A DNA stretch of 39,924 nucleotides from contig CAZNWR010000002.1 in NCBI GenBank assembly GCA_964576645.1, positions 1 through 39,924 of the forward strand, read 5' to 3'. The translations under genes were made by a program, and so were the position numbers. Position 1 is the stretch's first letter; every line of letters begins with the position of its first letter. The notes beneath the pieces were generated by a model, which was not told where the DNA came from, did not search any database, and saw only the letters and a program-made list of their open reading frames with translations. This document shows, piece by piece, positions 1 through 38,077 of this stretch. This DNA comes from an uncultured Enterobacteriaceae bacterium (GTDB lineage Bacteria > Pseudomonadota > Gammaproteobacteria > Eutrophobiales > Eutrophobiaceae).

Positions 1-52
1 CCGGAAGTCAGCCGTATCGGTTGAGCAAGCCGGAACTCAGAAAATTGCCGTC

Positions 53-946
53 GTGGTTGTAACCCATAATCGCAAGGACTTGCTGAGCGAGTGTCTTGCC
101 AGCTTACTTCGGCAAACCCGCCCGCCGGACCGGATCTACGTCGTCGACAATGCTTCCACCGACGGCACCGCCGAACTGCTCAAGTCCCGGGGCCTACTTG
201 CCGGCGGTAAGATAATCATGATCCGGCTGCAACGGAACACCGGCGGTGCCGGCGGCTTTCATGAAGGCATGCGCCATGCCGTGTCAGAACGGATGGACTG
301 GCTCTGGGTGATGGACGATGACGCCTGCCCGGATGAGGACGCCTTGCGGGCGCTGTTGGCCGCACAACCGGACAAGCACAACGTCTACGGATCGGTGGCC
401 ATCAACACCGATCGCGGCAAAGAGGAACTGTGCTGGCCCGCAGCGAGGCCGGGATTGGACAGCGCTTTTATCAGGGCAGAGCTTGAGCCATTGCAGGCCG
501 TTCACAATATCCCCTTTTTAGGACTCTTTATTCATACTGACCTGGTCCGAGCCATCGGCCTGCCGGACAAGAATTACTTCATACTCGGCGACGATACGGA
601 ATACATAGAGCGCGCGCGCATCCACGGTTCGAGTCTTTGCCTTGTGCGTAACAGCGTCGTGCGCCACCCGATGCCGGCTCGCCGCAGTTTCACCTTCATG
701 GGCCGGCGATTTTATAATCTGATTCTGCCGCCTTGGAAAAAGTACTACGACGTACGCAATCACATTCTCATCGGCAAAAAATACTATGGCCTGCGTTGTT
801 GGACGCAAACACTACCCGGCGTGATCGTGCGTTTGGTCGATTCCGTCGTGCATGAACCGGACCGGCTGCACATGCTGCACGCTTATACGCTGGGCATCCT
901 TGATGGAATTCTGGGCCGGCACAGCCGGCGCATCCTTCCACAGTGA
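53..946 (+). CDS. Family 2 (GT-A) glycosyltransferase, rhamnosyltransferase/WbbL-like; possibly 5'-truncated by the window edge
   Basis: 297-aa ORF. VVTHNRKDLLSECLASLLRQTRPPDRIYVVDNASTDGT plus WVMDDD give the GT2 nucleotide-sugar/DxD pattern. The frame stays open back to nt 2 (..KIAVVVVTHNR), so the true start may lie left of the window. GTG at 53 is the first in-window start. Confidence 0.8.
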   Translation: MVVTHNRKDLLSECLASLLRQTRPPDRIYVVDNASTDGTAELLKSRGLLAGGKIIMIRLQRNTGGAGGFHEGMRHAVSERMDWLWVMDDDACPDEDALRALLAAQPDKHNVYGSVAINTDRGKEELCWPAARPGLDSAFIRAELEPLQAVHNIPFLGLFIHTDLVRAIGLPDKNYFILGDDTEYIERARIHGSSLCLVRNSVVRHPMPARRSFTFMGRRFYNLILPPWKKYYDVRNHILIGKKYYGLRCWTQTLPGVIVRLVDSVVHEPDRLHMLHAYTLGILDGILGRHSRRILPQ

Positions 947-955
947 CGACGCATT

Positions 956-2074
956 ATGCAGCTGCTCTTTCTCTGCAAGCAGAAGTACATGCACAAGGAC
1001 GTGATTGATGATCGCTATGGCCGACTCTATGAGTTGCCTCATCACCTTTCACGCTATCACCAGATCACGATCATCGTGACAAACTACCGTATGACCTGGG
1101 GGTTCAAGCGGCCGCGGCGCTTCAAAGAGAATAGTAATGTCACATGGTACTCCTTGCAGATGCATTACCTGTTACTGCCGACGCTCGTCTCTTATTGGCG
1201 CCTGATTCTTCGGCAGTTCCGGGAAAATCGTCCCGCTTTGGTGGTCGGCGCTTCCGACAGTCCCCACATCATCCTGGCTTCATTGATCGCCGGGGTCCAC
1301 GGCGTACCAGTGATTCTGGACCTTTATGACAATTTCGAAGCGTTTGGCCTGAGCAAAATCCCGGGTGTCCGAACGCTCTACCGCCATGCCCTGACGCGGG
1401 CCAATGCCGTAACCTGCGTCAGCAGCCGGCTTCGGGGACATGTAGAGGCGATACGCGGAGCCAGCGGATCCGTGTTCACCATTGAAAGCACGATCAACAA
1501 ATCTGATTTTTATCCGCAGGACAAGAAAGCGGCGCGCCGCAGTCTGAACCTGGACGCCGACGGAATCTACATCGGCGCCGCCGGGTCTTTATATGCAAGC
1601 CGGGGGATCAATACCGTTTACGCGGCGTACCGCCAGATAGTCGCAGCGCGTCCCGCCGTAAAGCTCCTGCTGGCCGGCAAGCTCGATCCGCGCGCGCCGT
1701 TACCCGAACATAGTAACGTGGTTTATCTCGGCAACCTGCCACATTCCGAAATGAACAGCTTCTACAATTCTCTGGATGTCGCCTTCAACTACATGGAGGA
1801 CGACGATTTCGGCCGCTATTCATTTCCCCAGAAGGCCTACGAGATGCTCGCTTGCGAAGTGCCGGTCCTGAGCGCCCGGGTGGGCGTCTTCGCGGACTTG
1901 CTAAAGCACGACCGGTTTCTGTACACACCCGCAGATTCGGCGGAATTGACGGACAAGGCAATTTCCCTTCTTGATAAACCGGCCGTGCTGCAGCTGAATA
2001 TTCCCGCCTGGTCCGACCAGGCAGATCGACTGGATAACGTAATCTGTGGTCTTTTTACGCCTGAGCACTCTTGA
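956..2074 (+). CDS. GT-B fold glycosyltransferase (GT4/GT1-like)
   Basis: 372-aa ORF starting 10 nt after the preceding stop. The C-terminal half has a GT-B donor-site pattern (YLGNLPHSEMNSFYNSLDVAF ... FPQKAYEMLACEVPVLSARVG). Confidence 0.65.
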   Translation: MQLLFLCKQKYMHKDVIDDRYGRLYELPHHLSRYHQITIIVTNYRMTWGFKRPRRFKENSNVTWYSLQMHYLLLPTLVSYWRLILRQFRENRPALVVGASDSPHIILASLIAGVHGVPVILDLYDNFEAFGLSKIPGVRTLYRHALTRANAVTCVSSRLRGHVEAIRGASGSVFTIESTINKSDFYPQDKKAARRSLNLDADGIYIGAAGSLYASRGINTVYAAYRQIVAARPAVKLLLAGKLDPRAPLPEHSNVVYLGNLPHSEMNSFYNSLDVAFNYMEDDDFGRYSFPQKAYEMLACEVPVLSARVGVFADLLKHDRFLYTPADSAELTDKAISLLDKPAVLQLNIPAWSDQADRLDNVICGLFTPEHS

Positions 2075-2111
2075 ATAAGAAAGGACCACGCCAGGGCTTA
2101 GCGGATTTTTC

Positions 2112-3167
2112 ATGAATACCTCCTCAAGACACGGTCGCCCCGATACCAACCGGCAAACTCGGCTTGAGTTGCTGGAGACCAAGCACCCTGACTATGTCTA
2201 TCGACTGAAAAACAGCACCTACGTACTTGAACCGCGGAAGCTGTTCTACATGGATGTTCCAAAATGTGCCGGAACCAGCATCAAAACACTGTTGGCATCT
2301 GTCAAAGGCTATAACAGCGACTTGGCGGAGTTTGCCGAGTCATCCGAAACCAGACGGGAGATGCTGATCCACGAAAGGAAGATTAATCCTGTTCCCAGTT
2401 TGAGAAGTTTCCCAAGAGAGAAACAGGAAGAGATCCTGTTCGGGGACACATGGGCCAGGTTCTGCGTCGTAAGGAATCCTTATACACGCATCTTCAGCGT
2501 GTGGTTCTCAAAGGTGCTGTTGAGAGAAATTGGATATTTGGAGAAGTTGCCCGGTTACACTCTTAGAGAAACATACGAGAATACCGACCAGATACTCGAT
2601 GATTTTCGTAATTTCGTGCAGTTCATCTACGAGAATCAATCTACAAAACCTCTGGATGGGCACTGGGATCGCCAGACCAGACTCCTGCTTCATGATTCGC
2701 TGAAGTGGGACAGGATATTCAAATATGAGGAACTCCCCAGCGTCGAGGAATATCTACGCCAGAAAGGCGTAGGCGACGGTCAACTGGGCCGGCTGAACGT
2801 CTCCGGATACAATCCGGACTTCAAATGTCTTGGCAAAGACACCATCTCCAAAATCAGGGAAATGTTTGCCGAGGATTTCGAGTGTTTTGATTATGATCCC
2901 GATTTACTGCCCTCGGCCAGCTCCGTAGACGAATCCCTGCTGATTCTTTACGTAACTTCAAGCATAGCAAGAAATTTGCGGATCCAAGGTCTGCGCGCCG
3001 AAGTTGCCGGCCTATCAGCGGAAAATGGACGCCAGTCGGCGCAAATTTCCTGCCTCAAACGAGAATTTCGGGATTTAACGAACAGGTTTGTCTTTAAGAA
3101 CATCTTTAGAAAGACCGCCAAAAGGATAAGAAACACTATTTTGAAGGATGACACGCGCAATGGTTGA
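2112..3167 (+). CDS. Carbohydrate sulfotransferase-like protein (Sulfotransfer_2 type) with coiled-coil-like C-terminal tail
   Basis: 351 aa. YMDVPKCAGTSIKTLL resembles the 5'-phosphosulfate-binding loop (PKxGT[ST]S). VVRNPYTRIFSVW resembles the 3'-phosphate-binding RxPxxRxxS motif of PAPS-dependent sulfotransferases. The tail is LRIQGLRAEVAGLSAENGRQSAQISCLKREFRDL. Confidence 0.65.
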   Translation: MNTSSRHGRPDTNRQTRLELLETKHPDYVYRLKNSTYVLEPRKLFYMDVPKCAGTSIKTLLASVKGYNSDLAEFAESSETRREMLIHERKINPVPSLRSFPREKQEEILFGDTWARFCVVRNPYTRIFSVWFSKVLLREIGYLEKLPGYTLRETYENTDQILDDFRNFVQFIYENQSTKPLDGHWDRQTRLLLHDSLKWDRIFKYEELPSVEEYLRQKGVGDGQLGRLNVSGYNPDFKCLGKDTISKIREMFAEDFECFDYDPDLLPSASSVDESLLILYVTSSIARNLRIQGLRAEVAGLSAENGRQSAQISCLKREFRDLTNRFVFKNIFRKTAKRIRNTILKDDTRNG

Positions 3168-3253
3168 ACACGAGATGAACAATGATGTTGGTATTAATGG
3201 GACTCTTTCAGTGATCTCCCGGAGGTAAAGGTTGATCGCAAGAGACCGTTCCC

Positions 3254-4270
3254 ATGAAGACGCTATTCGTACATTTTGGTTTTGCCAAAACAGGCTCCAC
3301 CAGCATTCAGTTGTTTTGCTATAAGAACCGTCTGCGACTGGAGCAAGAGGGGGTAAGGTTTCTCAGATCAGGGCTTGTTTGGTGCATTCATCGGCGATAC
3401 AGAGAAAAGCTGTCCCGAATCATAGATGAGATCAATACCACAAACTTTGACACTTACATTCTTTCTGAAGAAGAAATCTCATTTAAGCCTGATACAGTTT
3501 ATTTGTCCCGCCTTTTAGCAGGGTTGCATGATTGCAAGGTGATTTTACTGTGCTACATAAGACGGCAAGATGATTTTCTTGAGTCGTTATATTGCGAAGA
3601 TATAAAGAATACGAGGATTGCGGATTCCGCAAACGCCTATTTGAACCGACTGGAAACGGCCGGCGGGCTCAGGAAGATAGACCGCGGGGATTACCTCTTG
3701 ACGATAAAGAGCTACATGCGCGCGCTCAATCTTGGCTACGAGGATTTCATCGTGCGCAGGTTTTCCAGGAACGAGCTTTACAGGGGTGATGCGGTAGTGG
3801 ACTTCATATCAATGGTTTGCCCGCATTTGCACGATCAGTTGTCAATGGACCCAGTTAACTGGGAGGAATTGGGATTCACGCCGTGCCCCCAACTGAATTT
3901 CTCAAAGGATCTGGATTACGTAGAATTCAAGCGACGTCTTAACAAAGTTATCAATAGAATGCCTGCAACGGAATCCATAAAAAACAAACTGGCCGGATGG
4001 CTGCGAAACATCCTGCGCTCCGCACCGGCGAAGCGATCCGGAGATACAAGGGCCTACTTTAACCCTGAACGAAGGCAGGAGTTGCTACGCCACTTTTCTG
4101 ATATCAATTCCGAACTCTCCCGCATATTCTTTGATGGAGCGGCACTGTTCCAGGAAGGAGATGTCCGCTCGGTTACACCATACCCAGGGCTGAAAGGCCC
4201 CCAATACCTGCGCATTCTTTGGTATTACGTGAAGGCCGGAGCACGGGCTCTGAGACCGGCCGCAAAGTGA
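3254..4270 (+). CDS. Second sulfotransferase-like / P-loop protein, function uncertain
   Basis: 338 aa. N-terminal FVHFGFAKTGSTSIQ is a PSB-loop-like KTGSTS. LLCYIRRQDDFLESLY resembles an R-x-D-x3-S 3'-PB motif. Low-GC coding sequence similar to the neighbouring genes. Confidence 0.45.
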   Translation: MKTLFVHFGFAKTGSTSIQLFCYKNRLRLEQEGVRFLRSGLVWCIHRRYREKLSRIIDEINTTNFDTYILSEEEISFKPDTVYLSRLLAGLHDCKVILLCYIRRQDDFLESLYCEDIKNTRIADSANAYLNRLETAGGLRKIDRGDYLLTIKSYMRALNLGYEDFIVRRFSRNELYRGDAVVDFISMVCPHLHDQLSMDPVNWEELGFTPCPQLNFSKDLDYVEFKRRLNKVINRMPATESIKNKLAGWLRNILRSAPAKRSGDTRAYFNPERRQELLRHFSDINSELSRIFFDGAALFQEGDVRSVTPYPGLKGPQYLRILWYYVKAGARALRPAAK

Positions 4271-4420
4271 ACTTCATGCACAGTCGCGGGACATCTGGCC
4301 ACGCGCACCTTGAAGGAGCGAACCGGTTTTCGATCCCGATACCCTGGCTGAAACAGCCTCGTACACCTATGCGCCGGAACACTGTAAATCGAATGCCCTT
4401 ACACAGGGTGATTTCCTGCA

Positions 4421-5566
4421 ATGACTGATCCCAAAGTTTCCGTAATCGTTCCGATCTTCAACACTTCCCAATATATCGAGAGGTGCGTTCGGTCACTCCT
4501 TGAACAAACTTTGAGGGAGATAGAGATAATACTCGTTAATGACGGCTCCACGGACGACAGCCACGGGGTAATCACGCGCCTGACAAAACTAGACTCCCGC
4601 ATCAGCCATGTTCATTTCGACACCAACCTGGGCACCTTCCATGCACGCCTCTCTGGAATGCTAGTGGCAAAAGGGGAGTATATAGGTACTGTCGACTCGG
4701 ACGATTGGGTCCATAAAGAGATGTACAAGAAACTCTACGACGAAGGTAAAGCGCATAATTGCGACATCGTGGAGTGCGGGCTATGGTCTGTTTCTGCCGA
4801 TGGAAGAATGTGCAGGCTGGAATGGTGTGATCACTTTGTCAGAGAATTGAACTGCCGCCAGATAGTTGCCGGCGTTCTCGCCAGGCTCATCTGGCACATC
4901 ATGGCAAACAAGATATTTCACTCATCGGTAGTCAAGGAGAGTCTTTCGTTCCTGGAAACGGTGGATGAAAAAATAATTGTCGCGGACGATAAACTCATTA
5001 CATTCCCCATGTACTTTCGGGCCAAAAAATATCGCCACCTTCCCCAGAGGATGTACTATTACGCGCAGCGCCAGCATTCGTCTTCCAACAATCGAAGCCT
5101 TGCGCATGACCTCAGGCACATCAGGGACACTCTTACAGTTGATAAACATATTCGACGCTTCTTGAATTCCAATGCTGGCAATTCGGACCTATTGAGTCTT
5201 CTTGACCAAAACGAAGCGGAAGAACTGGAGTTATGTCTAAAAAATATCAGCAATTACAAGTGCCACTCTCACGATAGAAATTTGCTCTACGAAGAGTTAA
5301 TCACGCAGTATGGAAGCAGGTATCTCGCTCTATCTCACGGCAATGTCAGAAGGGACCCGGCGACAGGGGACATCATAGTCCCAAAGAAATCCGGATTTCG
5401 GAATGCGGGACGGCAAATCAGGGGTTCCGAAAGATACTTATACCTGCTCCTGAAAACGCACTATCCCGTTCTCTCTGCTCTCTACACTCCTTTGCACGTA
5501 CTGTTCCTGTTCGCGTACAAAACAGCGATTCGAATACGAGAGTTTCTTTACGGGACGAAGCAGTGA
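4421..5566 (+). CDS. Family 2 glycosyltransferase
   Basis: 381 aa. KVSVIVPIFNTSQYIERCVRSLLEQTLREIEIILVNDGSTDDS and VDSDDW (DxD) are a classic GT2 N-terminal domain. Confidence 0.8.
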   Translation: MTDPKVSVIVPIFNTSQYIERCVRSLLEQTLREIEIILVNDGSTDDSHGVITRLTKLDSRISHVHFDTNLGTFHARLSGMLVAKGEYIGTVDSDDWVHKEMYKKLYDEGKAHNCDIVECGLWSVSADGRMCRLEWCDHFVRELNCRQIVAGVLARLIWHIMANKIFHSSVVKESLSFLETVDEKIIVADDKLITFPMYFRAKKYRHLPQRMYYYAQRQHSSSNNRSLAHDLRHIRDTLTVDKHIRRFLNSNAGNSDLLSLLDQNEAEELELCLKNISNYKCHSHDRNLLYEELITQYGSRYLALSHGNVRRDPATGDIIVPKKSGFRNAGRQIRGSERYLYLLLKTHYPVLSALYTPLHVLFLFAYKTAIRIREFLYGTKQ

Positions 5567-6702
5567 GCCGGCCTAAGGTATCTGTCGTCTTACCGACATA
5601 TAACGCCGAAGCGTATATACGCCAAACAATGGAATCGCTCGTGTCCCAGACCATGTCCGACATAGAAATCATTCCCGTAGATGATGGGTCTCCGGATGCT
5701 TGTGGGAAGATATTGGACGAATTCGCATCGATGGACAAACGCGTCAAACCCATCCATCAGGAAAATGGCGGATATGGCTCAGCCGTTAATTCCGGACTGG
5801 AACTGGCCTCTGGCGCTTTCATTGGAATAGTCGAAGCTGATGACTATGTCGAACCCGGGATGTTTGAAACCCTTTGGAATCTGGCTTCCCGCTTCGACAC
5901 TGATATTGCCAGATGCGGGTACAACGTGCTGACAAATGGAAGTGTCGCAGAGGTCGTTAGTCCCACCCCCCCTGAAAACGCGCCTTTCAACATAAGAGAG
6001 TTGCCTGAGTTTCTGGTCTCGCCCCCTGCGATTTGGTCTGCCATCTATCGGAAACAATTTCTGGAGAATCACGGGATCCGGGTGGTCGCGGACAAAGGGA
6101 TTTCCTATCAGGACGTTGACTTTTTTGTACGAACAACGATTCTCGCGGATAAACTCATTTGCACGATGACTCCTCTCTATAATTACAGACTGGACAACCC
6201 GTCCTCTTCCACCAACAGCGGGAAAAAAATCAACGACATCTTCGTAAGCTACCGGGCAACCGACAACTTTATCGAAAGTGCGTTAAGTAAATCAGACAAA
6301 ATTCGAGCATATTACACAAAGAGAAAAATATGTGACTTGCATTGGCATTTTCGCCGGCTGGGACGGTCGCCGGAGCAGCGGTATTATTTTGCCAACAAAG
6401 CCTCAAAATATCTGGAGCCAGCCGCCGGGGACGCTGCAGTTATAGCCCTGTTGAGTTCCAAACAGAAATTGTTTTTCTCCAGCATAACCAGGTATCCCCG
6501 CCTCTACACATTTTACAAGAACAACGAACCAGTTCTCGGTCTTCCGTCGAACTGGAACCAGAGGCGCCGATGGGGAAAGCTCCTCTATTTGTCGTTCGCA
6601 CACCCGGTTAAAGTCATCCTCAGGCTGGCCGCGCGGGTTTTCCATACAACACGGGAGGCGAAACATGACGCCGACACCGATCGCGAAGGTCATACAAATT
6701 GA
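5563..6702 (+). CDS. Family 2 glycosyltransferase
   Basis: 379 aa. KVSVVLPTYNAEAYIRQTMESLVSQTMSDIEIIPVDDGSPD and VEADDY. The GTG start overlaps the upstream stop (GTGA), so the genes are probably translationally coupled. Confidence 0.8.
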   Translation: MSRPKVSVVLPTYNAEAYIRQTMESLVSQTMSDIEIIPVDDGSPDACGKILDEFASMDKRVKPIHQENGGYGSAVNSGLELASGAFIGIVEADDYVEPGMFETLWNLASRFDTDIARCGYNVLTNGSVAEVVSPTPPENAPFNIRELPEFLVSPPAIWSAIYRKQFLENHGIRVVADKGISYQDVDFFVRTTILADKLICTMTPLYNYRLDNPSSSTNSGKKINDIFVSYRATDNFIESALSKSDKIRAYYTKRKICDLHWHFRRLGRSPEQRYYFANKASKYLEPAAGDAAVIALLSSKQKLFFSSITRYPRLYTFYKNNEPVLGLPSNWNQRRRWGKLLYLSFAHPVKVILRLAARVFHTTREAKHDADTDREGHTN

Positions 6703-6890
6703 AGCGGCTCATACACGGCTCCGGATGCGGCGGCAGGAATGCAGCAACGTCAGGTGAAGATTTCAGGGATCTGCAAGTATGGCAAACAGGCAGGTTATGG
6801 ATAGATATTCTGGATCCGGAGCTTTCCTGCGACTCGCTCCCTGTCCCTTATCCCACGGTGACTTTGCGCTAGCACCTCCCGTTCACTTCG

Positions 6891-8588
6891 ATGATTATTC
6901 GTAGTTTTCTCTCCTGCTTTCGCCTGCTAAACGCAAGACAGAAGCGGGACTACTTTATCGTTGTTGTTCTGTCGACACTGGCGTCGCTTACCGACATGCT
7001 TGGGATGATGGCCATAATCCCGGTGATTTCCGCTCTGGTGGACTATGACACGTCCGTGAGAAAGGGCTATCTGGTTTTCCTGTATCACCTGGCCGGAGAG
7101 CCAGAGAAGGCAGTATTTCTCGCGACACTGACCTTATGCGCCCTCGCCCTCGTATGGTTCAGCGGGGTCACCACCATGTCAGCGCTGTTCGCCAGCCAGA
7201 GGTTTTTCAAGCGAGTCAACGCGGATATTTCCGGGCGGGTATACCGTAGATACCTGTTTCAGCCGATTGAAGAATTCTATTCGAGGCCGTCCTCGGAATT
7301 TCTTCGAAATGTCAACGGCGTGAGTGAGCGAGTAGCATCGGGCGTGTTCGGTGCATCTACCATAATTCTGTCGCGGCTGATTCAGATTACGGTGATACTT
7401 ACAGCGCTGCTCTACGTAAATACTTTTGTTACCTGCGTTATCGTCGGCATCATATCGACCTGCTACCTGGCGATTTTTTTGGGTGTGAAGCCTAAGATCG
7501 TAAGGATTGCCGCTGAAAATTTTGCCGACACAAAACTGATCCAACAGCTTGCAATAGGAAGTTATCAAGGCTACCGGGGGATCACCGTTGACCAACAACT
7601 CGACCATTTTTCGTCACGATTTGACGATCTCAAAAAGGAGGCATCGAGGAAAGTCGCAAATATGGAGATTATCGGCGCCATCCCGAGAAATTTGATCGAG
7701 ATCACGGGCTTGACGTTGCTAATCGCCGCTTCCTATCTGATAGGCAGGACATCTCACGGCAGTCAGCATTTCGTCTTTGTAATGGGGCTTTTTGCAGTCG
7801 CAGCCTATAAGATCCTGCCTTCCGCGCAGCAATTGTACAACGCTTTAAACCGCCTTATGGCTTCTATGGTCGTTTACATGAAGGTGGAAGACGAATGGAA
7901 CGGTTTACCTGTAATCCAGCGCGTTCCGGCGGGTGGATCCCATATCGAAAGCTGCAGGCTCATTGAAATCGAAAATCTTTCATACAATATTGGCGACAAG
8001 CGTATTCTCAGCAACATTTGCATGAAGATCCCGCTTGTTGGAGTTATCCGCATAGCCGGGCCGTCAGGTATAGGGAAAAGCACCCTGCTGGAATTGATGG
8101 CGGGCCTGAGAAGACCGCAAAAGGGGGAGGTCTTCCTGGACGGCAGGCCCATGTCGAAGTTGAACCTCGGAAGTTGGTGGGCGTGTATATCCTACCTTTC
8201 CCAGGGTGCATACCTGTTCGAAGGCAGTATTCGTGAAAATATCGTGCTGCGAGAATTTTCGGTCGATCAGGAACGGCTTTTTGAAGTTGCGGATATATGC
8301 GGCTTGAATCTTCTTGACGGGTCAACCGGATTCGATCCGGAATTCCACGTTGCCGAGAATGGCTCGAATTTGTCGGGCGGCCAGAGGGGGCGTGTACTGC
8401 TGGCCAGGGCATTGTACAAAGACACCGGGATAGTATTTCTTGACGAGGCCTTTTCCGCCCTTGACGTTGGTGCGGCAAGAAAGATCCTGGAGAAGGTCGA
8501 AGCAGCCTTCCCCGGGCGCTGCATAATAGTCGTCAGCCACCGTGATGCTGAGTTACCTGAAGACGTAACGGAATATGTAATCAGCTAG
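6891..8588 (+). CDS. ABC exporter, fused permease + ATPase half-transporter (MsbA/PglK-type architecture)
   Basis: 565 aa. The N-terminal ~300 aa have about 6 hydrophobic segments. The C-terminal NBD has Walker A GPSGIGKST, signature LSGGQRGRV, Walker B IVFLDEAFSALD and H-loop VVSHR. Confidence 0.85.
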   Translation: MIIRSFLSCFRLLNARQKRDYFIVVVLSTLASLTDMLGMMAIIPVISALVDYDTSVRKGYLVFLYHLAGEPEKAVFLATLTLCALALVWFSGVTTMSALFASQRFFKRVNADISGRVYRRYLFQPIEEFYSRPSSEFLRNVNGVSERVASGVFGASTIILSRLIQITVILTALLYVNTFVTCVIVGIISTCYLAIFLGVKPKIVRIAAENFADTKLIQQLAIGSYQGYRGITVDQQLDHFSSRFDDLKKEASRKVANMEIIGAIPRNLIEITGLTLLIAASYLIGRTSHGSQHFVFVMGLFAVAAYKILPSAQQLYNALNRLMASMVVYMKVEDEWNGLPVIQRVPAGGSHIESCRLIEIENLSYNIGDKRILSNICMKIPLVGVIRIAGPSGIGKSTLLELMAGLRRPQKGEVFLDGRPMSKLNLGSWWACISYLSQGAYLFEGSIRENIVLREFSVDQERLFEVADICGLNLLDGSTGFDPEFHVAENGSNLSGGQRGRVLLARALYKDTGIVFLDEAFSALDVGAARKILEKVEAAFPGRCIIVVSHRDAELPEDVTEYVIS

Positions 8589-10450: not shown

Positions 10451-11437
10451 TTGAGTTCCACTTCCCTGTCAAAGTCTGTTCTGGTCACCGGCGGCGCCGG
10501 CTACGTGGGCAGCCACGCCTGCAAAGCGCTGCACGCGGCCGGCTACAAGCCCATATGCTACGACAATCTCTGCCGGGGCCACGCGGACGCCGCCCGCTGG
10601 GGCCCGCTGGTAACCGGGGACCTCCTGGACACCGCCGCGCTGGACGCGGTCTTCGAGCAGTACAGGCCGGAAACCGTGATGCACTTTGCCGCTCTCACCT
10701 ACGTCGGTGAATCGGTTTCCGATCCCCTCGCGTACTTCCGGACGAACGTCGGCGGCAGCGTGAGCCTGCTGGAGGCGATGCGCCGCCATTCAGTCACCAG
10801 ACTGGTGTTTTCCAGCAGTTGCGCGGTTTACGGTGTCCCCGACCAGGTGCCCATCAGCGAGACTGCGCCCTGCCGGCCCGTGAGCCCCTATGGCTGGACC
10901 AAGTATGTGGTGGAAACCGTTCTGGCACAGCACGCCCAGGCCTCCGGACTCCGGTACATCTCACTGCGCTATTTCAATGCCGCCGGGGCCGATATCGATG
11001 GAGATCTGGGCGAGCGTCATGATCCCGAGACCCACCTGATTCCACTGGTTCTCGAAGCCGCGGCGGGTAAGCGCGATCAAATCGAAATCTACGGTGACGA
11101 CTACGATACGCCGGACGGCACCTGCATCCGTGATTACGTTCACGTCAATGATATAGCCGAGGCCCACGTGCTGGCGCTGCGCAGGCTGGAACAGGGCGGC
11201 TCAACCACCACTTACAACGTCGGGACCGACCATGGATTTTCGGTCAGCGAGATTATTGCCCGCGCCGAGGCGGTGAGCGGATGCAAAGTGCCGGTGACGA
11301 CGGTAGCGCGGCGGCCCGGCGACGCCCCTTCCCTGGTTTCCGATGCAGCGCGCATACGCAATGATCTTGGCTGGTTACCAAAGCATTCAGACCTGGACCG
11401 TATCCTGGCCAGCGCATGGGCCTGGCATAGGCGCTGA
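10451..11437 (+). CDS. galE: UDP-glucose 4-epimerase
   Basis: 328 aa. VLVTGGAGYVGSH Rossmann motif, SSSCAVYG, catalytic PYGWTK (YxxxK) and RYFNAAGA. TTG at 10451 is the only plausible start before the GxxGxxG motif. Confidence 0.85.
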   Translation: MSSTSLSKSVLVTGGAGYVGSHACKALHAAGYKPICYDNLCRGHADAARWGPLVTGDLLDTAALDAVFEQYRPETVMHFAALTYVGESVSDPLAYFRTNVGGSVSLLEAMRRHSVTRLVFSSSCAVYGVPDQVPISETAPCRPVSPYGWTKYVVETVLAQHAQASGLRYISLRYFNAAGADIDGDLGERHDPETHLIPLVLEAAAGKRDQIEIYGDDYDTPDGTCIRDYVHVNDIAEAHVLALRRLEQGGSTTTYNVGTDHGFSVSEIIARAEAVSGCKVPVTTVARRPGDAPSLVSDAARIRNDLGWLPKHSDLDRILASAWAWHRR

Positions 11438-11461: not shown

Positions 11462-12679
11462 TCAGGTGGAGAGGCTCATCAATTCCCTGAACAATTCCAC
11501 GTACACCCCAGCCGCGCGTTCCCAACTGAAACGCCCGGCAGCGGAAGTACGGCCGTTGCGGGCCAGCCTGGACGCGAGCGCTGTATCGTCCAGCAACAGG
11601 CGGATCGCGCGCGCCAGATCCTGAGGATCGCCCGAATGCGCAAACAGACCGGTTTCTCCGTCCACAATGACGTCGCGGACAACGTCAAGATCCGACGCGA
11701 TAACGGGACAACCGCAGGCCTGGGCCTCGACCATCACCAGACCCAGCCCCTCCCGGTCACCGCCCGCGGCCTCGACAAAAGGAAACACCGCAATGGCGGC
11801 TGACTGGTAGTGTGCTGCCAGCGATTTCTGCGTAAGCGCACCGAGGAACGTGACACGCGGCCCCAGGTGCAAACGCGCCGCGTGTGCCTCAAGGGCGCCC
11901 CGCTGCGGCCCGTCACCGATAATGTACAAATGGATGTCCGGATGCTCGGGCACAAGCGACTGTAAGGCATCCAGTAGAACCGGGACGCCCTTCTTTTCCA
12001 CCAACCGGCCAACGAAGAGCAGGCGGCGCGGGATACGCGGCAACCGGTTCTCCGGCGGTACAAACAGCGATTTCGTGTCCACGCCCATGGGCGCCACCCG
12101 CAGGCAGTCCCTGCGGGCTCCCAGAGCCAGTGCGTGCCGCACCATGGCATCGCTCACGACGGCAACAACGTCCGCATTGCGCATCACCCAGGACTTCAGT
12201 CTCCCGGCAAGGCCTCCGCGAAATGTGTAAAGGTCCGCTCCGTGGGCCGTACAGACTACCCTTACGTCCCTGCGCAAGACACGCTTGATGAATACGGCAA
12301 CCACGCCCTGCGGCAGGATCCAGTGGGCGTGAATGATTTTGAAATTACCTCGCGCAAGGACGCGCAGGCAGGCGATAAGCTGCGCAATCACGAAAAACGG
12401 CACCTGCAGAAAGCGCAGTGGATTGCTCCTGAGCTTTGCCGGGATACCGCCGTCATAGGCCAGTGTTTCCAGGAACACAGGCAGGTAACGGTAGCGGTAA
12501 ACGTCAACGTCATCCAGTCGTTCCCGTGTCAGAGCGCCGGCAACATGTGGCGCCAGCACGGTAACGTCAAATTCCGATGCTACCCGCCGGCAGAGTTCGT
12601 GAACAAAGACAGGTTCGGTGTCACCCTCCCGGCGCGGATAGGTGGAAGTAATAACCAGAAGGCCCGGTTTCGACGGCAT
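11462..12679 (-). CDS. GT4-family (GT-B) glycosyltransferase
   Basis: 405 aa. LLFVGRLVEKKGVPVLLDAL ... EGLGLVMVEAQACGCPVIASD is the typical GT4 E-x7-E region. Convergent with galE (24-nt gap). Confidence 0.8.
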   Translation of the reverse strand: MPSKPGLLVITSTYPRREGDTEPVFVHELCRRVASEFDVTVLAPHVAGALTRERLDDVDVYRYRYLPVFLETLAYDGGIPAKLRSNPLRFLQVPFFVIAQLIACLRVLARGNFKIIHAHWILPQGVVAVFIKRVLRRDVRVVCTAHGADLYTFRGGLAGRLKSWVMRNADVVAVVSDAMVRHALALGARRDCLRVAPMGVDTKSLFVPPENRLPRIPRRLLFVGRLVEKKGVPVLLDALQSLVPEHPDIHLYIIGDGPQRGALEAHAARLHLGPRVTFLGALTQKSLAAHYQSAAIAVFPFVEAAGGDREGLGLVMVEAQACGCPVIASDLDVVRDVIVDGETGLFAHSGDPQDLARAIRLLLDDTALASRLARNGRTSAAGRFSWERAAGVYVELFRELMSLST

Positions 12680-12789: not shown

Positions 12790-13653
12790 TCATTGACCAC
12801 CCCCGCGCTGATACATGAGCGCGGTGATCTGTTCGGACACCAATCCGACAAGAAACACCATGAAGGACGCCAGCAGCAGCAGCGCGCTCATGTTCGTGAA
12901 ACGGTCCTGGGTAAAGTATGTGTAGCCGTAATTGATGAATCCGAGTATCGCCAGCACAAGGCTAATCGGAAAGAAAATCTTCAACGGGGAGTAGAGGGTG
13001 CCAATGCGGAAAATGATCAAAATAAACCGCAGTCCGTCGCGCAGAGGCTTGATATGGCTGCGCCCAGCCCGCCGCGCAGCCTGGATGGGGACATATTGAA
13101 CGGGGTAGCCCGCACGGAAGAACGCCATGGTGATGGTGGTGGGATAGGAAAATCCGTTGGGCAACAGATGCAGAAACTCGCGGAACCTGGCAGTTTCCAC
13201 CGCCCGCAGGCCCGACGTCAGGTCAACGATGCGGTGCCCGGTGATCCAGCTCGACAATACATTGTAGAAAGCGTTGGCGAAGCGGCGAAACAGGTTCGCT
13301 TGGGAGTCAGTGCTGCGGGCTCCCACGACCATGGAGTAACCGTTCTCAATTTCCGCGCACAGGCGCGTCACATCATCCGGGGAATGCTGGCCGTCGGCAT
13401 CCATGAATACCGTCACCGCGCCGGATGCGGCGCGCGCACCGGTCTTTATCGCGGCACCGTTTCCCATGCAGTATGGATGCCTGATTACGGTAGCCCCCGC
13501 GCTCTCAGCCACACTGACCGTCGTATCACTGGAAGCATCATCCACGACAATAACCTCGCCTGCCGGGAACAATTGCTTTAAGCGGGGGAGGATGCGGGCC
13601 AGGCCATCAGCCTCGTCCCGGGCCGGAATGACAATGCTGAGCGTCCTATTCAT
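12790..13653 (-). CDS. GT2 with two C-terminal TM helices (GtrB/ArnC/DPM1-like polyprenyl-phosphate glycosyltransferase candidate)
   Basis: 287 aa. LSIVIPARDEADGL ... VIVVDDASSDTT ... VFMDADGQH. The C-terminus (LKIFFPISLVLAILGFINYGY ... ALLLLASFMVFLVGLVSEQI) has the two-helix anchor typical of Und-P/Dol-P sugar synthases. The upstream gene's 3' end overlaps this gene's start by 8 nt. Confidence 0.7.
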   Translation of the reverse strand: MNRTLSIVIPARDEADGLARILPRLKQLFPAGEVIVVDDASSDTTVSVAESAGATVIRHPYCMGNGAAIKTGARAASGAVTVFMDADGQHSPDDVTRLCAEIENGYSMVVGARSTDSQANLFRRFANAFYNVLSSWITGHRIVDLTSGLRAVETARFREFLHLLPNGFSYPTTITMAFFRAGYPVQYVPIQAARRAGRSHIKPLRDGLRFILIIFRIGTLYSPLKIFFPISLVLAILGFINYGYTYFTQDRFTNMSALLLLASFMVFLVGLVSEQITALMYQRGGGQ

Positions 13654-15628
13654 TGCCCTCTCGATTTAATCGATCCCCTGGAAATCGGGGCTCCGTTTCA
13701 CCGGCCCCGATGTCTTTATGCGGCTCGCGCTGTAATACTTTCAGTTGCCGCCTGAGCTTGTTCACTTTTTTTCTGTAGGCCAGGTACGCCACGGGATCCT
13801 TGTCCAGTTCCTTTCGCACGGCGGAATACGCTCTGGCGGACTCCTTTGGAAGCCGAAGCGCAAGACTGACCTCCAGAAGATAGACGCGCCGGTGAACGGT
13901 GGGTGATGCGTGCACCGCCTTGACCAGATTAGCATAACCCCGCGCCAGATCCCCGAAACGAAGTTCAAGCGTGGCGGCAAGTTCGTACAGGGCGCCTGCC
14001 CGGTTGCCCGCATGACGCGCCAGGGTCACGATCAGGTGTGCCAGCTCGTGATGATCTATAGGCGGACAGTCACCCGACGCGACCAGAGGGACAAGTGTCG
14101 CTATTTCTCCGATATTTTCGAAAACCTGGCGCGTGCCGGCCGCCGCCTTGCGATCCGCCGTCTGCCACGATTGATTGTCGATGGACTTGCCCAGCACACA
14201 GGCATTGACCGCTATACGTTTCAGTACCGGGTAAACCTGTTTCGGGAAATCCGACTCCATGACGTCCAGCAAGCGGAGTGCCGTATCCGTATCACCTGAA
14301 ACGAGCAGTCGATTTTCCAGGTTCATGAGCGCCCGCGGTGACTCCGGATGCCACTCCGCCATCAATTTCGCCTGCAGCAGCGGCTGCCTCCACAGCTGTA
14401 CATTCTGCCAGGTTACGGCTGTAACCATCACGCAGTAGCCGACTGCCGCTACAGCCACCGGCAGGCGCAGCGACTTGCGCTCCAGCAGCCGATGAACCAT
14501 CCACGCCAGCAGAAATACCACGCCCAGTGATGGCAGGTAGTTTCTGTGCTCGAAGTAGATGTCCAGATTCACGAAGGTAGACTCGATAACGTGCCCCCCG
14601 AAAAACCAGAGCACGGAAAAGCTGAACGCGGGAGCGCGCCTGCGCAGTCCGACAGCCGCACCGACCAGCAGAACTATGCCGAGGCAGGCGAACAGCGTGG
14701 TGGGTGGCGACAGCAGGCCGTGGGAGACGGCGAAGTCATCGTGGAAAAGGCCGAAGGCGGCCGGGTGCGGAAATGCCAGGTTACGCAGGTAGACCAGGAG
14801 AACGCGACCCTCGGATATCAGCTTCTGCCAGGCCGAATAGGGCCGCGAGACGAAACTGTGAAGGGTAGGGCCGAGGTCGAGCAGGAAATAGCCGACTATC
14901 GCCAGCAACGGCAAAAGTAGAAAAACGCTGCGCCAGATACGGTACTTAGGAAGGCGTTGTGTGCCCCTCAGCAGCGTGACATCGGTGATGAGCGCGTATA
15001 GGGGCAAGAGGGCGCCGTTCTCCTTGGAGAAGACCGCCAATGCGGTACCCAGCACAATGGACAGGCTCATCACCAGGTAACATCGACGAGCACTCCAGCG
15101 GGGAAAATTCGACCGGCCCAGCATGAACCCGCAGACGCCGGCCATGATGAACAGGGCGGAAAGCTCGGTCATGCGCTGTACGACGTAGAGAACGGTATCC
15201 GTCAGCATGGGCTGCAGCGCCCACAAACCGGCGACCGCCAGCGCAAAGGCAGTTCCGCGCGTGCCGGGAATTGAAAGTGCTTTGGCGGCCAACCGGGCGA
15301 AACAGTAAATCAGTGCGGCCGTCAGCAAATGCAGCAGGAGATTCACGAACTTGAAGGCAAATGCATCGTACGGCCAGGCCGCGTGCTGCAGGGCGAAGGT
15401 GGCCAGGGACAGGGGTCGGCCCGTCGGCCCCGCTACGCCCCCGAATACATACCAGGAATAGCCCGACGTCCTGATCTGCTCAAGCGGGCCGAGGTTGAAA
15501 AAATCGTCGAGAAAATACCCGCTGTGCAGACCGGGCCAGTACAAGCCGGCCACCGCGCACAGCAACAACGCCAATCCGAGAAGCCCGGCATGGCGCTCGA
15601 ACCGCGGGTCAATAATGCGAAATTTCAC
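13646..15628 (-). CDS. TMTC-like polytopic membrane protein with C-terminal TPR domain (PMT_2/GT-C candidate)
   Basis: 660 aa, GTG start. YFLDDFFNLGPLEQI ... GRPLSLATFALQH ... FKFVNLLLHLLTAALIY is the N-terminal signature of bacterial TMTC-type proteins. About 10 hydrophobic segments are followed by TPR-like repeats. Confidence 0.7.
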   Translation of the reverse strand: MKFRIIDPRFERHAGLLGLALLLCAVAGLYWPGLHSGYFLDDFFNLGPLEQIRTSGYSWYVFGGVAGPTGRPLSLATFALQHAAWPYDAFAFKFVNLLLHLLTAALIYCFARLAAKALSIPGTRGTAFALAVAGLWALQPMLTDTVLYVVQRMTELSALFIMAGVCGFMLGRSNFPRWSARRCYLVMSLSIVLGTALAVFSKENGALLPLYALITDVTLLRGTQRLPKYRIWRSVFLLLPLLAIVGYFLLDLGPTLHSFVSRPYSAWQKLISEGRVLLVYLRNLAFPHPAAFGLFHDDFAVSHGLLSPPTTLFACLGIVLLVGAAVGLRRRAPAFSFSVLWFFGGHVIESTFVNLDIYFEHRNYLPSLGVVFLLAWMVHRLLERKSLRLPVAVAAVGYCVMVTAVTWQNVQLWRQPLLQAKLMAEWHPESPRALMNLENRLLVSGDTDTALRLLDVMESDFPKQVYPVLKRIAVNACVLGKSIDNQSWQTADRKAAAGTRQVFENIGEIATLVPLVASGDCPPIDHHELAHLIVTLARHAGNRAGALYELAATLELRFGDLARGYANLVKAVHASPTVHRRVYLLEVSLALRLPKESARAYSAVRKELDKDPVAYLAYRKKVNKLRRQLKVLQREPHKDIGAGETEPRFPGDRLNREGNE

Positions 15629-16419: not shown

Positions 16420-16869
16420 TTACTTGCAGGCACCGGGGGAGAACTTGCTCTGGATGTCGCTGTAAGTACCAGCCGTACCACCCTTTCCGCAGCTCCACGT
16501 CTTGCCGCCATCCGTCGTTGCGACCGCAAACGTGTCATTCTGGATAGCTGCCGCTACGCCGCTCGACTTGAATTTCGCTACGACGGCAATGGTGCTTCCG
16601 TTGCCGGCGGTAAACGTGATACCCGACACGTACTTGCCGGCCGTTGTACCACCCAGATTCGACAAGCTCGCACTGGCGAAATTGCCGTTATCGGCAAAGA
16701 ACTCGGCCAGGGACGTCTTGAACTGGGAGGTGAGGGACACCGCCTCAGAAACCTGGGCGCGCGCCGTGTAGTCCTGATAGGAGGGGATGGCGACGGCGGC
16801 CAGAATACCGATAATGGCCACCACGATCATCAACTCAATCAGGGTAAAACCTTGCTGGAGTGTCTTCAT
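16420..16869 (-). CDS. pilA: Type IVa major pilin
   Basis: 149 aa. [44 protein letters not shown], with a C-terminal disulfide loop ([25 protein letters not shown]). RBS AAGGAGAG lies 7 nt upstream. Confidence 0.9.
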
Positions 16870-21113: not shown

Positions 21114-21140
21114 CGGTGCTCTCGATGGTCCGGGCTCTCG

Positions 21141-22967: not shown

Positions 22968-23037
22968 CAGAAATGCACCCCGGCCCCGAGATTCATCGGG
23001 GCAGTATTGGAGAAAATCGCAGATCCCGCCATGTTTG

Positions 23038-23053
23038 CGCACGGACAGCGCCA
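23038..23053 (-). promoter_or_regulatory. Weak candidate sigma54 promoter upstream of tandem copy 2
   Basis: The minus strand reads TGGCGC-TGTCC-GTGCG, with GG and GC at the correct -24/-12 spacing about 70 nt upstream of ATG 22967. The -12 region is off consensus, and a chance match is possible in GC-rich DNA. Confidence 0.3.
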
Positions 23054-23264
23054 ATGGGCAGGCACATTTGTCTCGCGCTTGACGTATCCCGAACAGGCCG
23101 CAACACTGGTCTAAACCTGCCGGCACCGCCCGAATGGAAATTGATTGCGACTTTCATAAAAAGTTACGGTACCCGATCAACGCCGCCCTGTCCCGTCCAG
23201 CCGTCTCCCGGATCGCAGCCCACCGGCGCCGCCGCCCCACAGGCACATACATCCGAAGTGATAA

Positions 23265-36429: not shown

Positions 36430-36527
36430 ATGCTTCAGATGGCCGGCGGCTAGTTTAATTGGCGCCGGATTGCACTTGGGTCATCGTCCGGAACGGATAT
36501 GACCGGGGATCCACGGGGGAGATCACA

Positions 36528-37961: not shown

Positions 37962-37970
37962 GTAGGCGGT

Positions 37971-37996
37971 GTGCGCGGTGACCGTGCACCGCGCAC
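37971..37996 (+). terminator. GC-rich hairpin downstream of gdh (possible terminator, no U-tract)
   Basis: GTGCGCGGTG-ACCGTG-CACCGCGCAC, a 10-bp perfect stem beginning 10 nt after the stop. Confidence 0.4.
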
Positions 37997-38014
37997 CTTG
38001 CACCATGAACCGAA

Positions 38015-38042
38015 CTTGATCTGTAGCAATTCGCCCCAATGT
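38015..38042 (+). promoter_or_regulatory. Sigma32 (heat-shock) type promoter of clpB
   Basis: CTTGAT-N13-CCCCAATGT, against the consensus CTTGAA-N13-15-CCCCATNT, about 35 nt upstream of the clpB ATG. Confidence 0.55.
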
Positions 38043-38077
38043 TAGGGAAGGCATAATTTGATCCAGGTACTTCATCC

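Follow-up and report, generated by a model that had tools for sequence, protein, structure and literature searches.

Glycosylation of the type IV pilin in group IV Pseudomonas aeruginosa (Pa5196/PA7) involves TfpW, a protein of 646 residues encoded directly downstream of pilA, which has about 11 transmembrane (TM) helices, an essential DDx motif in its first periplasmic loop and a C-terminal periplasmic tetratricopeptide repeat (TPR) domain; its donor is assembled in the cytoplasm, with a polyprenyl phosphate as carrier, and the flippase of the system is given as unknown (bioRxiv 10.1101/2020.04.19.049825). The locus analysed here resembles this system and differs from it in its glycan genes. 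It is carried by a contig of 39,924 nucleotides from an uncultured Enterobacteriaceae bacterium (CAZNWR010000002.1, assembly GCA_964576645.1), which was analysed over its full length and is called the window throughout. Positions 2-8588 hold glycosyltransferase genes, two sulfotransferase-like genes and the gene of an ATP-binding cassette (ABC) half-transporter; a type IV pilin module, which includes a TfpW-like protein of 660 residues named U660, is found 4-8 kb from this ABC cluster. The explanation favoured, at a probability of about 0.5, is that the two together form a TfpW-type variant, in which a swappable cassette makes a sulfated, lipid-linked O-glycan for the pilin; the chemistry, carrier, step order and acceptor proposed below are deduced.

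The window corresponds to the entire contig C2 of a genome of 2.85 Mb in 317 contigs (93% complete, 60.8% GC), and the cluster is therefore truncated at its 5' end. In the following, C-numbers denote contigs of this genome, L-numbers denote the compared loci, and G002 is a relative from the same family.

In its described features, U660 is like TfpW in size, in its place after pilA, in the DD pair which follows the first TM helix (TM1) and in its TPR end. The two systems differ in their products and in export. Pseudomonas uses enzymes of the DprE1/E2 type to make an oligomer of D-arabinofuranose that bears no sulfate, and no flippase has been identified for it, whereas the window locus has two sulfotransferase genes, one of them a probable one, a PglK-like ABC gene and several genes for glycosyltransferases of families 2 and 4 (GT2 and GT4). 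PglK of Campylobacter jejuni and Wzk of Helicobacter pylori are homodimeric half-transporters with fused transmembrane and nucleotide-binding domains (TMD and NBD), of the same type and size as the protein encoded at 6891-8588, and PglK, like the relatives of that protein, is encoded in a protein-glycosylation locus. The two are not orthologous (178 bits, against a cut-off of 1000 for the PglK model). Moreover, PglK serves an N-linked pathway with the oligosaccharyltransferase PglB and a heptasaccharide on undecaprenyl diphosphate (Und-PP), whereas in the window the partner is TfpW-like and the carrier may be a monophosphate.

Cytoplasmic sulfotransferases dependent on 3'-phosphoadenosine 5'-phosphosulfate (PAPS) and encoded among glycosyltransferase and exporter genes are shared by the window with rhizobial NodH/LpsS, mycobacterial Stf and the capsule systems of marine Vibrio and Cobetia. 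A dedicated or extra adenosine 5'-phosphosulfate (APS) kinase located in a polysaccharide cluster is a further feature common to bacterial sulfated-carbohydrate systems and to the genome analysed here (PMC11641403). The products of the NodH/LpsS, Stf and capsule systems are lipo-chitooligosaccharides, lipopolysaccharide (LPS), glycolipids and capsules, none of them a pilin glycan, and, in contrast to these systems, the family of the second sulfotransferase candidate of the window (3254-4270) has no curated model.

The Haloferax AglJ pathway is like the proposal in building an oligosaccharide on a polyprenyl monophosphate, which, once flipped, passes en bloc to a protein of a surface filament; it differs in its N-linkage, the window proposal being O-linked, in using the transferase AglB, in having no ABC flippase and in belonging to another domain of life. 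Sulfated N-glycans are known on the S-layer proteins of halophiles and on their type IV-pilin-like archaellins. Finally, pathways of the Wzm/Wzt type with a WbdD-like protein have separate Wzm and Wzt subunits, the latter with a Wzt_C domain, whereas the window transporter is fused and has no Wzt_C.

The genes on which the comparison depends are given below, with their strand and the basis of each assignment. The open reading frames (ORFs) of the first sulfotransferase and of the second candidate are called ORF3 and ORF4.

2-946, + strand: GT2 protein (GT2a), with its 5' end cut by the start of the contig; Pfam Glycos_transf_2, E 8e-27
956-2074, + strand: GT4 protein; Pfam Glyco_trans_1_4 / Glycos_transf_1
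2112-3167, + strand: ORF3, sulfotransferase 1, Sulfotransfer_2 family, 351 residues; PF03567
3254-4270, + strand: ORF4, sulfotransferase 2 candidate, 338 residues, uncurated family; motifs, fold search and distant relatives
4421-5566, + strand: GT2 protein (GT2b) with a hydrophobic/amphipathic C-terminal tail; Pfam Glycos_transf_2, E 3.5e-31
5563-6702, + strand: GT2 protein (GT2c), coupled to the preceding GT2 by GTGA; Pfam, E 2e-31
6891-8588, + strand: PglK-like fused TMD-NBD ABC half-transporter, 565 residues; Pfam ABC_membrane and ABC_tran
10451-11437, + strand: UDP-glucose 4-epimerase GalE; NCBIfam TIGR01179, 428.8 bits against a cut-off of 262
11462-12679, - strand: GT4 protein, final gene of the pilin-side string; Pfam, E 6e-40
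12790-13653, - strand: polyprenyl-phosphate sugar synthase-like GT2 (AglJ/PpgS/ArnC-like); NCBIfam, all matches below cut-off
13646-15628, - strand: U660, TfpW-like polytopic protein with a C-terminal TPR domain; position, DD motif and predicted helices
15773-16234, - strand: type IVa pilin PilA2, candidate acceptor; Pfam Pilin and N_methyl
16420-16869, - strand: type IVa pilin PilA1, candidate acceptor; ORF and leader G|FTLIELM

The coordinates and motifs of the seven + strand ORFs (2-8588), as described in an earlier note on this DNA, were confirmed in the sequence, where the GTGA start/stop overlap could also be read at 5563-5566; the GT2 and GT4-like genes, which had been placed before the sulfotransferases, were verified by Pfam (2-946 and 956-2074). 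As the same note had stated, no initiating phosphoglycosyltransferase, Wzm/Wzt, Wzx/Wzy or PAPS-synthesis gene is present among the annotated ORFs of the window.

Sulfotransferases and PAPS supply

ORF3, previously proposed as a sulfotransferase, passed the full-length Sulfotransfer_2 profile: the match to PF03567 (E 1.4e-19, 71.7 bits against a cut-off of 22) covers model positions 5-252 of 252 and is the only one to this family in the genome. Across sulfotransferases, binding of PAPS is defined by a PK..GTS-type loop and by an R-x7-S motif. Both are found in ORF3, the 5'-phosphosulfate-binding (PSB) loop as PKCAGTS at residues 50-56 (P50-K51-C-A-G-T55-S56) and the 3'-phosphate motif as RNPYTRIFS at residues 121-129. 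K51, T55, R121 and S129 are invariant between ORF3 and P0005, its only close homologue (43% identity), in which H87 and H184 are conserved as well, and the same two motifs recur in distant relatives of 195-207 residues. The latter, all Sulfotransfer_2-like and with an uninformative genomic context, were the only proteins retrieved when metagenomes were scanned with ORF3 and P0005. The protein has no signal peptide. Its catalytic domain, residues 38-262, is followed by about 60 residues of helical character and by a conserved basic end, KTAKRIR, features which suggest an association with the membrane. Sequence searches of the PDB, performed with both ORF3 and ORF4, returned nothing useful.

ORF4 is probably a sulfotransferase as well, of an uncurated family. 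Close homologues are almost nil, and 1,890 distant ones were collected by a HMMER search. Its motifs, KTGSTS at residues 12-17 and RRQDDFLES at residues 103-111, correspond to the consensus HIGxxKTGTTAIQ ... SSE ... YLRRQDxxxES of 40 full-length relatives, in which H7, G9, K12, S71, E73 and R103 are invariant and S111 is conserved. They represent a K-T-G-[ST]-T loop and an R-x7-S motif at the spacing found in sulfotransferases, and not a Walker A motif (GxxxxGK[ST]); S71 and E73, both located where strand 3 ends, are candidate catalytic residues. Sulfotransfer_1 is reached by 5 of the 40 relatives on their own (best E 6e-06), and one member of the family carries the UniRef label of sulfotransferase family protein. 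When the family profile was compared with the PDB, a single match was obtained, to the Alicyclobacillus sulfotransferase 3rnl (E 0.022), in which both motifs are aligned.

The structure of ORF4 predicted by AlphaFold (AF2) has a pLDDT of 92.6 and a pTM of 0.89. In a Foldseek search with this model, ranks 1-4 and 6-8 were taken by 3rnl, by the sulfotransferase domain of NDST1 and by the heparan sulfate (HS) sulfotransferases 3-OST-3/-1, bound to 3'-phosphoadenosine 5'-phosphate (PAP), with a probability of 1.0, a target TM-score of 0.50-0.57 and E-values from 5e-4 to 5e-3. The confident model, the sulfotransferases at the head of the solved matches and the presence of the PSB and R-x7-S motifs in 40 relatives uphold the earlier description of ORF4 as sulfotransferase-like.

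In locus L004 a homologue of ORF4 (47% identity) directly follows a homologue of GT2c (42%), an adjacency which suggests that the two window proteins act as a sugar-adding and sulfating pair. Another member of the ORF4 family is encoded in L018 (10001-10957), between flagellin/FlaF/FlbT genes and the gene of a MptE/Maf-like protein of 1486 residues, that is, within a flagellin-glycosylation locus.

Genes for PAPS synthesis, which the earlier note had proposed to look for elsewhere in the genome, are indeed present, all outside the window. They encode a stand-alone APS kinase on C86 (8184-8966) and a Sat-type ATP sulfurylase on C83, and are accompanied by the gene of a true CysQ, for recycling, on C145 (316 bits; the cut-off is 229). 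The APS kinase gene is contained within a second polysaccharide cluster (C86, 1443-10134), along with genes for a WbpL/WecA-like transferase, an epimerase and a GT4 protein, and with manC, an asparagine synthase-like asnB and ugd. The sole PAPS_reduct-family protein of the genome (CysH) carries the CC...CxxC cysteine pairs of APS reductases. With a CysH of this type, sulfate assimilation is independent of PAPS, and the APS kinase would therefore serve sulfation.

Sulfotransfer_3 matches are found on C68, C3, C29, C283, C271, C111, C246, C253, C226, C304, C65 and C124, several of which belong to open frames 600-790 residues long, so that this small genome is unusually rich in sulfotransferases. 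An exclusive link between the APS kinase and the window locus was rejected because of these other sulfotransferase genes, about 12 in number. Similarly, suhB was rejected as a locus-specific cysQ: it scores 326 bits with the inositol monophosphatase model and 85 bits with CysQ, and the true CysQ is the one on C145. In 20 relatives, trmJ and suhB form a conserved pair of housekeeping genes.

The ABC transporter and the low-GC cassette

The best match of the 6891-8588 protein to the NCBIfam MsbA model (185 bits, cut-off 602) is, like the PglK match given above, below threshold. Among solved half-transporters, PglK/WlaB is its best full-length match (E 1.7e-43, residues 10-554 against 6-545); this agrees with the type of lipid-linked-glycan flippase to which it had been compared in the earlier note, and the protein is a candidate flippase for a lipid-linked glycan. 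It belongs to a small group. Only 26 proteins match it at E <= 1e-60 in a search of 5.8 billion clusters, and among 400 genomes sampled from the class a transporter of this type was found in this one only; a scan of genome contigs with the 6891-8588 protein alone yielded unrelated NBD matches only.

Six more distant homologues (43-49% identity) were looked up, and each of them sits beside pilA and a TfpW-like gene. The loci are L003, L024 (Zhongshania aquimaris, beside pilBCD), L025, L026, L098 and L099, and their gene string is pilA / U660-like gene (629-647 residues) / [FimB] / GT2 / ABC, followed by variable glycan genes, which include TagF-like, NeuB, Glf, Stealth and methyltransferase genes. 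The GT2 of these loci is 58-60% identical to the 12790-13653 protein; it is absent from L025. This last locus, which is metagenomic, brings both halves of the window together in one 15-kb cluster, containing a pilin, a U660-like protein, an ABC transporter of this subfamily, Glf and homologues of GT2a (45%), of the GT4 encoded at 956-2074 (38%) and of the GT4 encoded at 11462-12679 (45%). In a maximum-likelihood tree of the transporters, the window clade and three pilA-linked lineages, separate from one another, all branch from an unresolved basal fork. Modification of a protein had been a minor option in the earlier note; with all six relatives located beside pilA and a TfpW-like gene, it is now the best-supported destination of the glycan.

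The base composition changes sharply within the cluster. GC is 48-51% in the genes at 2112-8588 (48% for both ORF3 and GT2b, 48-50% for the four genes at 2112-6702), against 56-58% in the two preceding genes, 55-63% downstream and 60.8% in the genome. In L020/L021 and in L022 a single, unrelated GT2 gene lies between the conserved GT4 and ABC genes, at the place where the window has four low-GC genes, and L020 and L022 hold no orthologue of GT2b. By contrast, the surrounding frame is conserved: GT2a has orthologues 73-74% identical in L020 and L022, and those of the GT4 encoded at 956-2074 are 64-75% identical in L020-L022, against the 38% of the pilin-linked L025. The best NCBIfam match of GT2a is the galactofuranosyltransferase GlfT1, a weak one (109 bits, below cut-off). 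In sister loci, sulfotransferases belonging to other families are encoded, such as a Sulfotransfer_2 protein in L003, a Sulfotransfer_3 protein in L020 (E 3e-29) and a fusion of a hexapeptide acyltransferase to Sulfotransfer_3 in L098; altogether, a sulfotransferase is present in 4 of the 9 loci having enough flanking sequence. As a part of the favoured explanation, and with the same even probability, the genes at 2112-6702 would be a horizontally acquired specificity cassette, set in a conserved GT2-GT4...ABC frame.

In L020 the orthologous frame (71-73% identity) is located between the 3' end of suhB and galE, in the order regulator, flavin adenine dinucleotide (FAD) enzyme, GT2a, GT4, GT2, ABC, and the cluster is closed by a GalE orthologue (67%). 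A comparison of 20 genomes from the same bacterial family repeatedly showed the order trmJ / suhB / variable glycan genes / GT2 / U660 / pilin / pilRS. Taken together, the position in L020 and this recurrent order indicate that the cluster occupies a variable slot of the pilin locus; in the window genome, the cluster is found on the opposite side of the trmJ-suhB pair from that slot.

Contig C277, read as its reverse complement, carries purM, the gene of a helix-turn-helix (HTH) protein of 191 residues and that of a FAD enzyme, 471 residues long up to the contig end, with Amino_oxidase/NAD_binding_8 matches and a C-terminal motif like that of UDP-galactopyranose mutase (UGM). The C277 genes are 78-82% identical to those which precede GT2a in L020. 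Judging from this likeness and from the FAD enzyme gene, which extends to the end of its contig, C277 probably joins the start of the window and supplies the missing upstream genes.

The pilin module and the proposed pathway

The pilin-side genes encode two pilins, U660, a GT2, a GT4, four more large membrane proteins, a GT2-GtrA fusion, PilR and PilS. PilA1 and PilA2 are 57% identical; their globular parts contain Ser/Thr/Gly-rich stretches of 19 and 20 residues, which could be glycosylation sites. U660 starts 145 bp after the stop codon of pilA2, and its own stop is overlapped by the start of the 12790-13653 gene. About 12 helices are predicted in residues 8-413 of U660, followed by TPR-like helices, and a Foldseek search with its model retrieved TPR proteins, among which the TPR of O-GlcNAc transferase. 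The pair D41-D42, located right after TM1, is invariant, among other motifs, in U660 and four homologues of about 30% identity.

The U660 family was detected in 125 of the 400 genomes of the class, and in 20 sampled loci its members are almost always flanked by a pilin and a GT2; homologues of the 12790-13653 protein, 53-65% identical, adjoin the U660-like gene in 19 of these. Since U660 is common and the ABC transporter is found in none of the 20 loci, the transporter, with the extended set of glycan genes, is a rare elaboration of a pilA / TfpW-like / GT2 core. Homologues of the GT4 encoded at 11462-12679 (42-47%) follow the GT2 in L026, L078, L091 and L094, and one is also present in L025, where a GT2 of the 12790-13653 type is absent. 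The best NCBIfam matches of the 12790-13653 protein are AglJ (126 bits, cut-off 325), PpgS, dolichyl-phosphate (Dol-P)-hexose transferase and ArnC, all below cut-off; the missing phosphoglycosyltransferase may be explained by this enzyme, rather than by a gene located off the contig.

Two of the four other large membrane proteins of the pilin side are TMEM260-like. The TMEM260-like proteins of the window, encoded at 17122-19134 and 23265-25439, are 47-48% identical to each other. Between them, at 19281-23126, two adjacent membrane proteins of 610 and 661 residues are encoded, 93-96% identical over about 570-600 residues.

In the pathway proposed, synthesis would begin on the cytoplasmic side of the membrane, where undecaprenyl phosphate would be loaded with a sugar, probably by the AglJ/ArnC-like GT2 (12790-13653). 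The chain would then be lengthened by membrane-associated GT2 and GT4 enzymes, possibly with the inclusion of galactofuranose, which is suggested by the UGM-like gene, by the likeness of GT2a to GlfT1 and by galE; GalE would be a likely supplier of sugar nucleotides. Sulfate esters would be added in the cytoplasm by ORF3 and ORF4, both depending on PAPS, and the lipid-linked sulfated glycan would be flipped to the periplasm by the PglK-like transporter (6891-8588). U660, as a GT-C/TPR protein, would finally transfer the glycan to Ser/Thr residues of PilA1 and/or PilA2. The genes at 2-8588, probably with the regulator-like and UGM-like genes of C277, would thus be the half of the system devoted to building and exporting the glycan, a role which is part of the reading held at about 0.5. 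A sulfated, lipid-linked oligosaccharide flipped by the ABC protein had already been put forward in the earlier note, and is supported by the sulfotransferase profile and fold, by the PAPS genes and by the likeness to PglK, from which we infer the single steps.

Alternative explanations and wider meaning

A number of observations weigh against a sulfated pilin glycan made in this way. With trmJ, suhB and galE lying between them, the ABC cluster and the genes of the pilin string do not form a single operon. The contigs of the nearest orthologues of the transporter (71-77% identity, L019-L023) show no pilin gene, and in L019 the ABC gene is found at another place in the genome. The transporter is found in 0 of the 20 sampled TfpW-like pilin loci, and is therefore not a general requirement of such systems. 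The likeness of U660 to the P. aeruginosa TfpW is one of described features, and not of aligned sequences; no GT-C structure was recovered by Foldseek with the U660 model (pLDDT 59.6, with a poor membrane part), and a hhalign comparison of U660 with the TMEM260-like proteins of the window was not significant (probability 1.8%). The supply of PAPS is not specific to the locus, given the 12 or so further sulfotransferase genes of the genome. In the literature searched, no sulfated bacterial pilin glycan was found, hence there is no precedent, nor was a paper linking PglK-type flippases with TfpW/GT-C pilin systems. Finally, that no gene of the Wzy_C family (WaaL, PglL, TfpO) was found in the genome speaks for a pilin glycan and weakens the O-antigen-ligase route, but it is subject to the missing 7% of an assembly which is 93% complete, and is not proof.

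This last point also bears on a different account of the cluster, less probable than a pilin glycan and to be taken as tentative, by which it makes a sulfated LPS O-antigen, capsule or free polysaccharide on Und-PP, flipped in a Wzk/PglK-like manner and then ligated or exported without involvement of the pilus, the pilin genes being close as a result of the clustering of surface genes. The separation of the cluster from the pilin string by trmJ and suhB fits such a product, as do the contigs of the nearest ABC orthologues, which show glycan genes only, and the presence of a WbpL/WecA-like initiating transferase in the second genome cluster, together with the APS kinase. Moreover, the equivalent slot of G002 is O-polysaccharide-like, holding a Wzt with Wzt_C and a methyltransferase-Sulfotransfer_2 fusion, and for marine bacteria, sulfated capsules with sulfotransferase genes and ABC genes have been described (PMC11641403). 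However, all six of the more distant members of the ABC subfamily lie inside pilA operons, L025 mixes both gene sets, no Wzy_C-family ligase was found in the genome, and there are no Wza/KpsD-like outer-membrane export genes among the ORFs of the window.

Doubts about ORF4 lead to another possibility, slightly less likely again, that ORF3 is the only sulfating enzyme and ORF4 a different enzyme of P-loop fold, such as a kinase or a group transferase acting on the glycan, which would then bear one sulfate at most. ORF4 matches no Pfam or NCBIfam model, even at E 10, the Foldseek E-values are modest (5e-4), with GPN-loop GTPases, zeta-toxin kinases and nucleotide kinases close behind the sulfotransferases, and hhalign comparisons of its family with ORF3 and with the Sulfotransfer_3 protein of L020 align the PSB loop only, over 18-28 residues; these results also count against the favoured explanation. 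They are opposed by the K-T-G-[ST]-T loop without a Walker A motif and the R-x7-S motif at the proper distance, by the fold matches, 4 of the top 5 being sulfotransferases and 3 of them of the carbohydrate type, and by the relatives which reach Sulfotransfer_1 or are named sulfotransferase in UniRef.

It is unlikely that ORF3, instead of decorating a short oligosaccharide, acts on a polymer synthesised by the two large GT2 proteins, capping its non-reducing end with sulfate and setting the chain length before export, in a role like that of WbdD. The WbdD protein of E. coli O9a has a coiled coil and a membrane-binding end, which the tail of ORF3, with about 60 helical residues and then KTAKRIR, resembles, and in G002 a relative of ORF3, at family level, occurs as a methyltransferase fusion and adjoins a Wzt with the carbohydrate-binding Wzt_C domain. 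The window transporter, however, is of the PglK type without Wzt_C, and nothing points to GT2b or GT2c as polymerising enzymes. Least probable by far is a recent, unexpressed or decaying island without a current product: while the GC is strongly atypical and a scan for promoters and terminators gave no clear signals above shuffled expectation, the seven genes are intact, tightly spaced and co-oriented, with one coupled pair and neither stop codons nor frameshifts.

Locus L015 of the relative G002 (G002:C42, 144-12691), beside suhB-trmJ, contains a Wzt with Wzt_C, a methyltransferase-Sulfotransfer_2 fusion of 574 residues, GT2 proteins, a TagF-like enzyme and a GT4. From its domain composition, the fusion looks like a methyl/sulfate chain terminator of an ABC-dependent polysaccharide pathway. 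In the window genome, a Wzt-like ATPase is encoded on C170.

The favoured explanation can be carried further, into a claim that is itself doubtful. The window would encode the first bacterial type IV pilin with a sulfated O-glycan. This glycan would be built on undecaprenyl monophosphate from a start by an AglJ-like GT2, cross the membrane by a dedicated PglK-like ABC transporter and be attached en bloc by a TfpW-like GT-C/TPR enzyme; the ORF4 family, for its part, would form a new and widespread class of sulfotransferases acting on carbohydrates, found also in flagellin-glycosylation loci. If true, protein glycosylation of archaeal, Dol-P-like logic would be present in a gammaproteobacterium, and the flippase missing from the Pseudomonas TfpW model would be supplied; the ABC subfamily that recurs in TfpW-like operons is a directly testable candidate for this role. 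Pilin glycans affect phage resistance, adhesion and the charge of the pilus. A sulfated one, for which no bacterial precedent is reported, would bring a strong negative charge. In turn, ORF4 stands for about 1,900 uncurated homologues with the hallmarks of sulfotransferases, distributed in pilin, flagellin and polysaccharide loci, and one biochemical assay could annotate the whole family. For the engineering of sulfated glycoconjugates, a fixed GT2-GT4...ABC frame into which cassettes can be swapped is likewise of interest.

Towards the end of the window, two ORFs overlap on opposite strands. The longer one, antisense at 36450-38075, has no family match and is probably spurious; the + strand ORF at 36459-37961 encodes a glutamate/leucine-type dehydrogenase (ELFV_dehydrog, E 2e-59).

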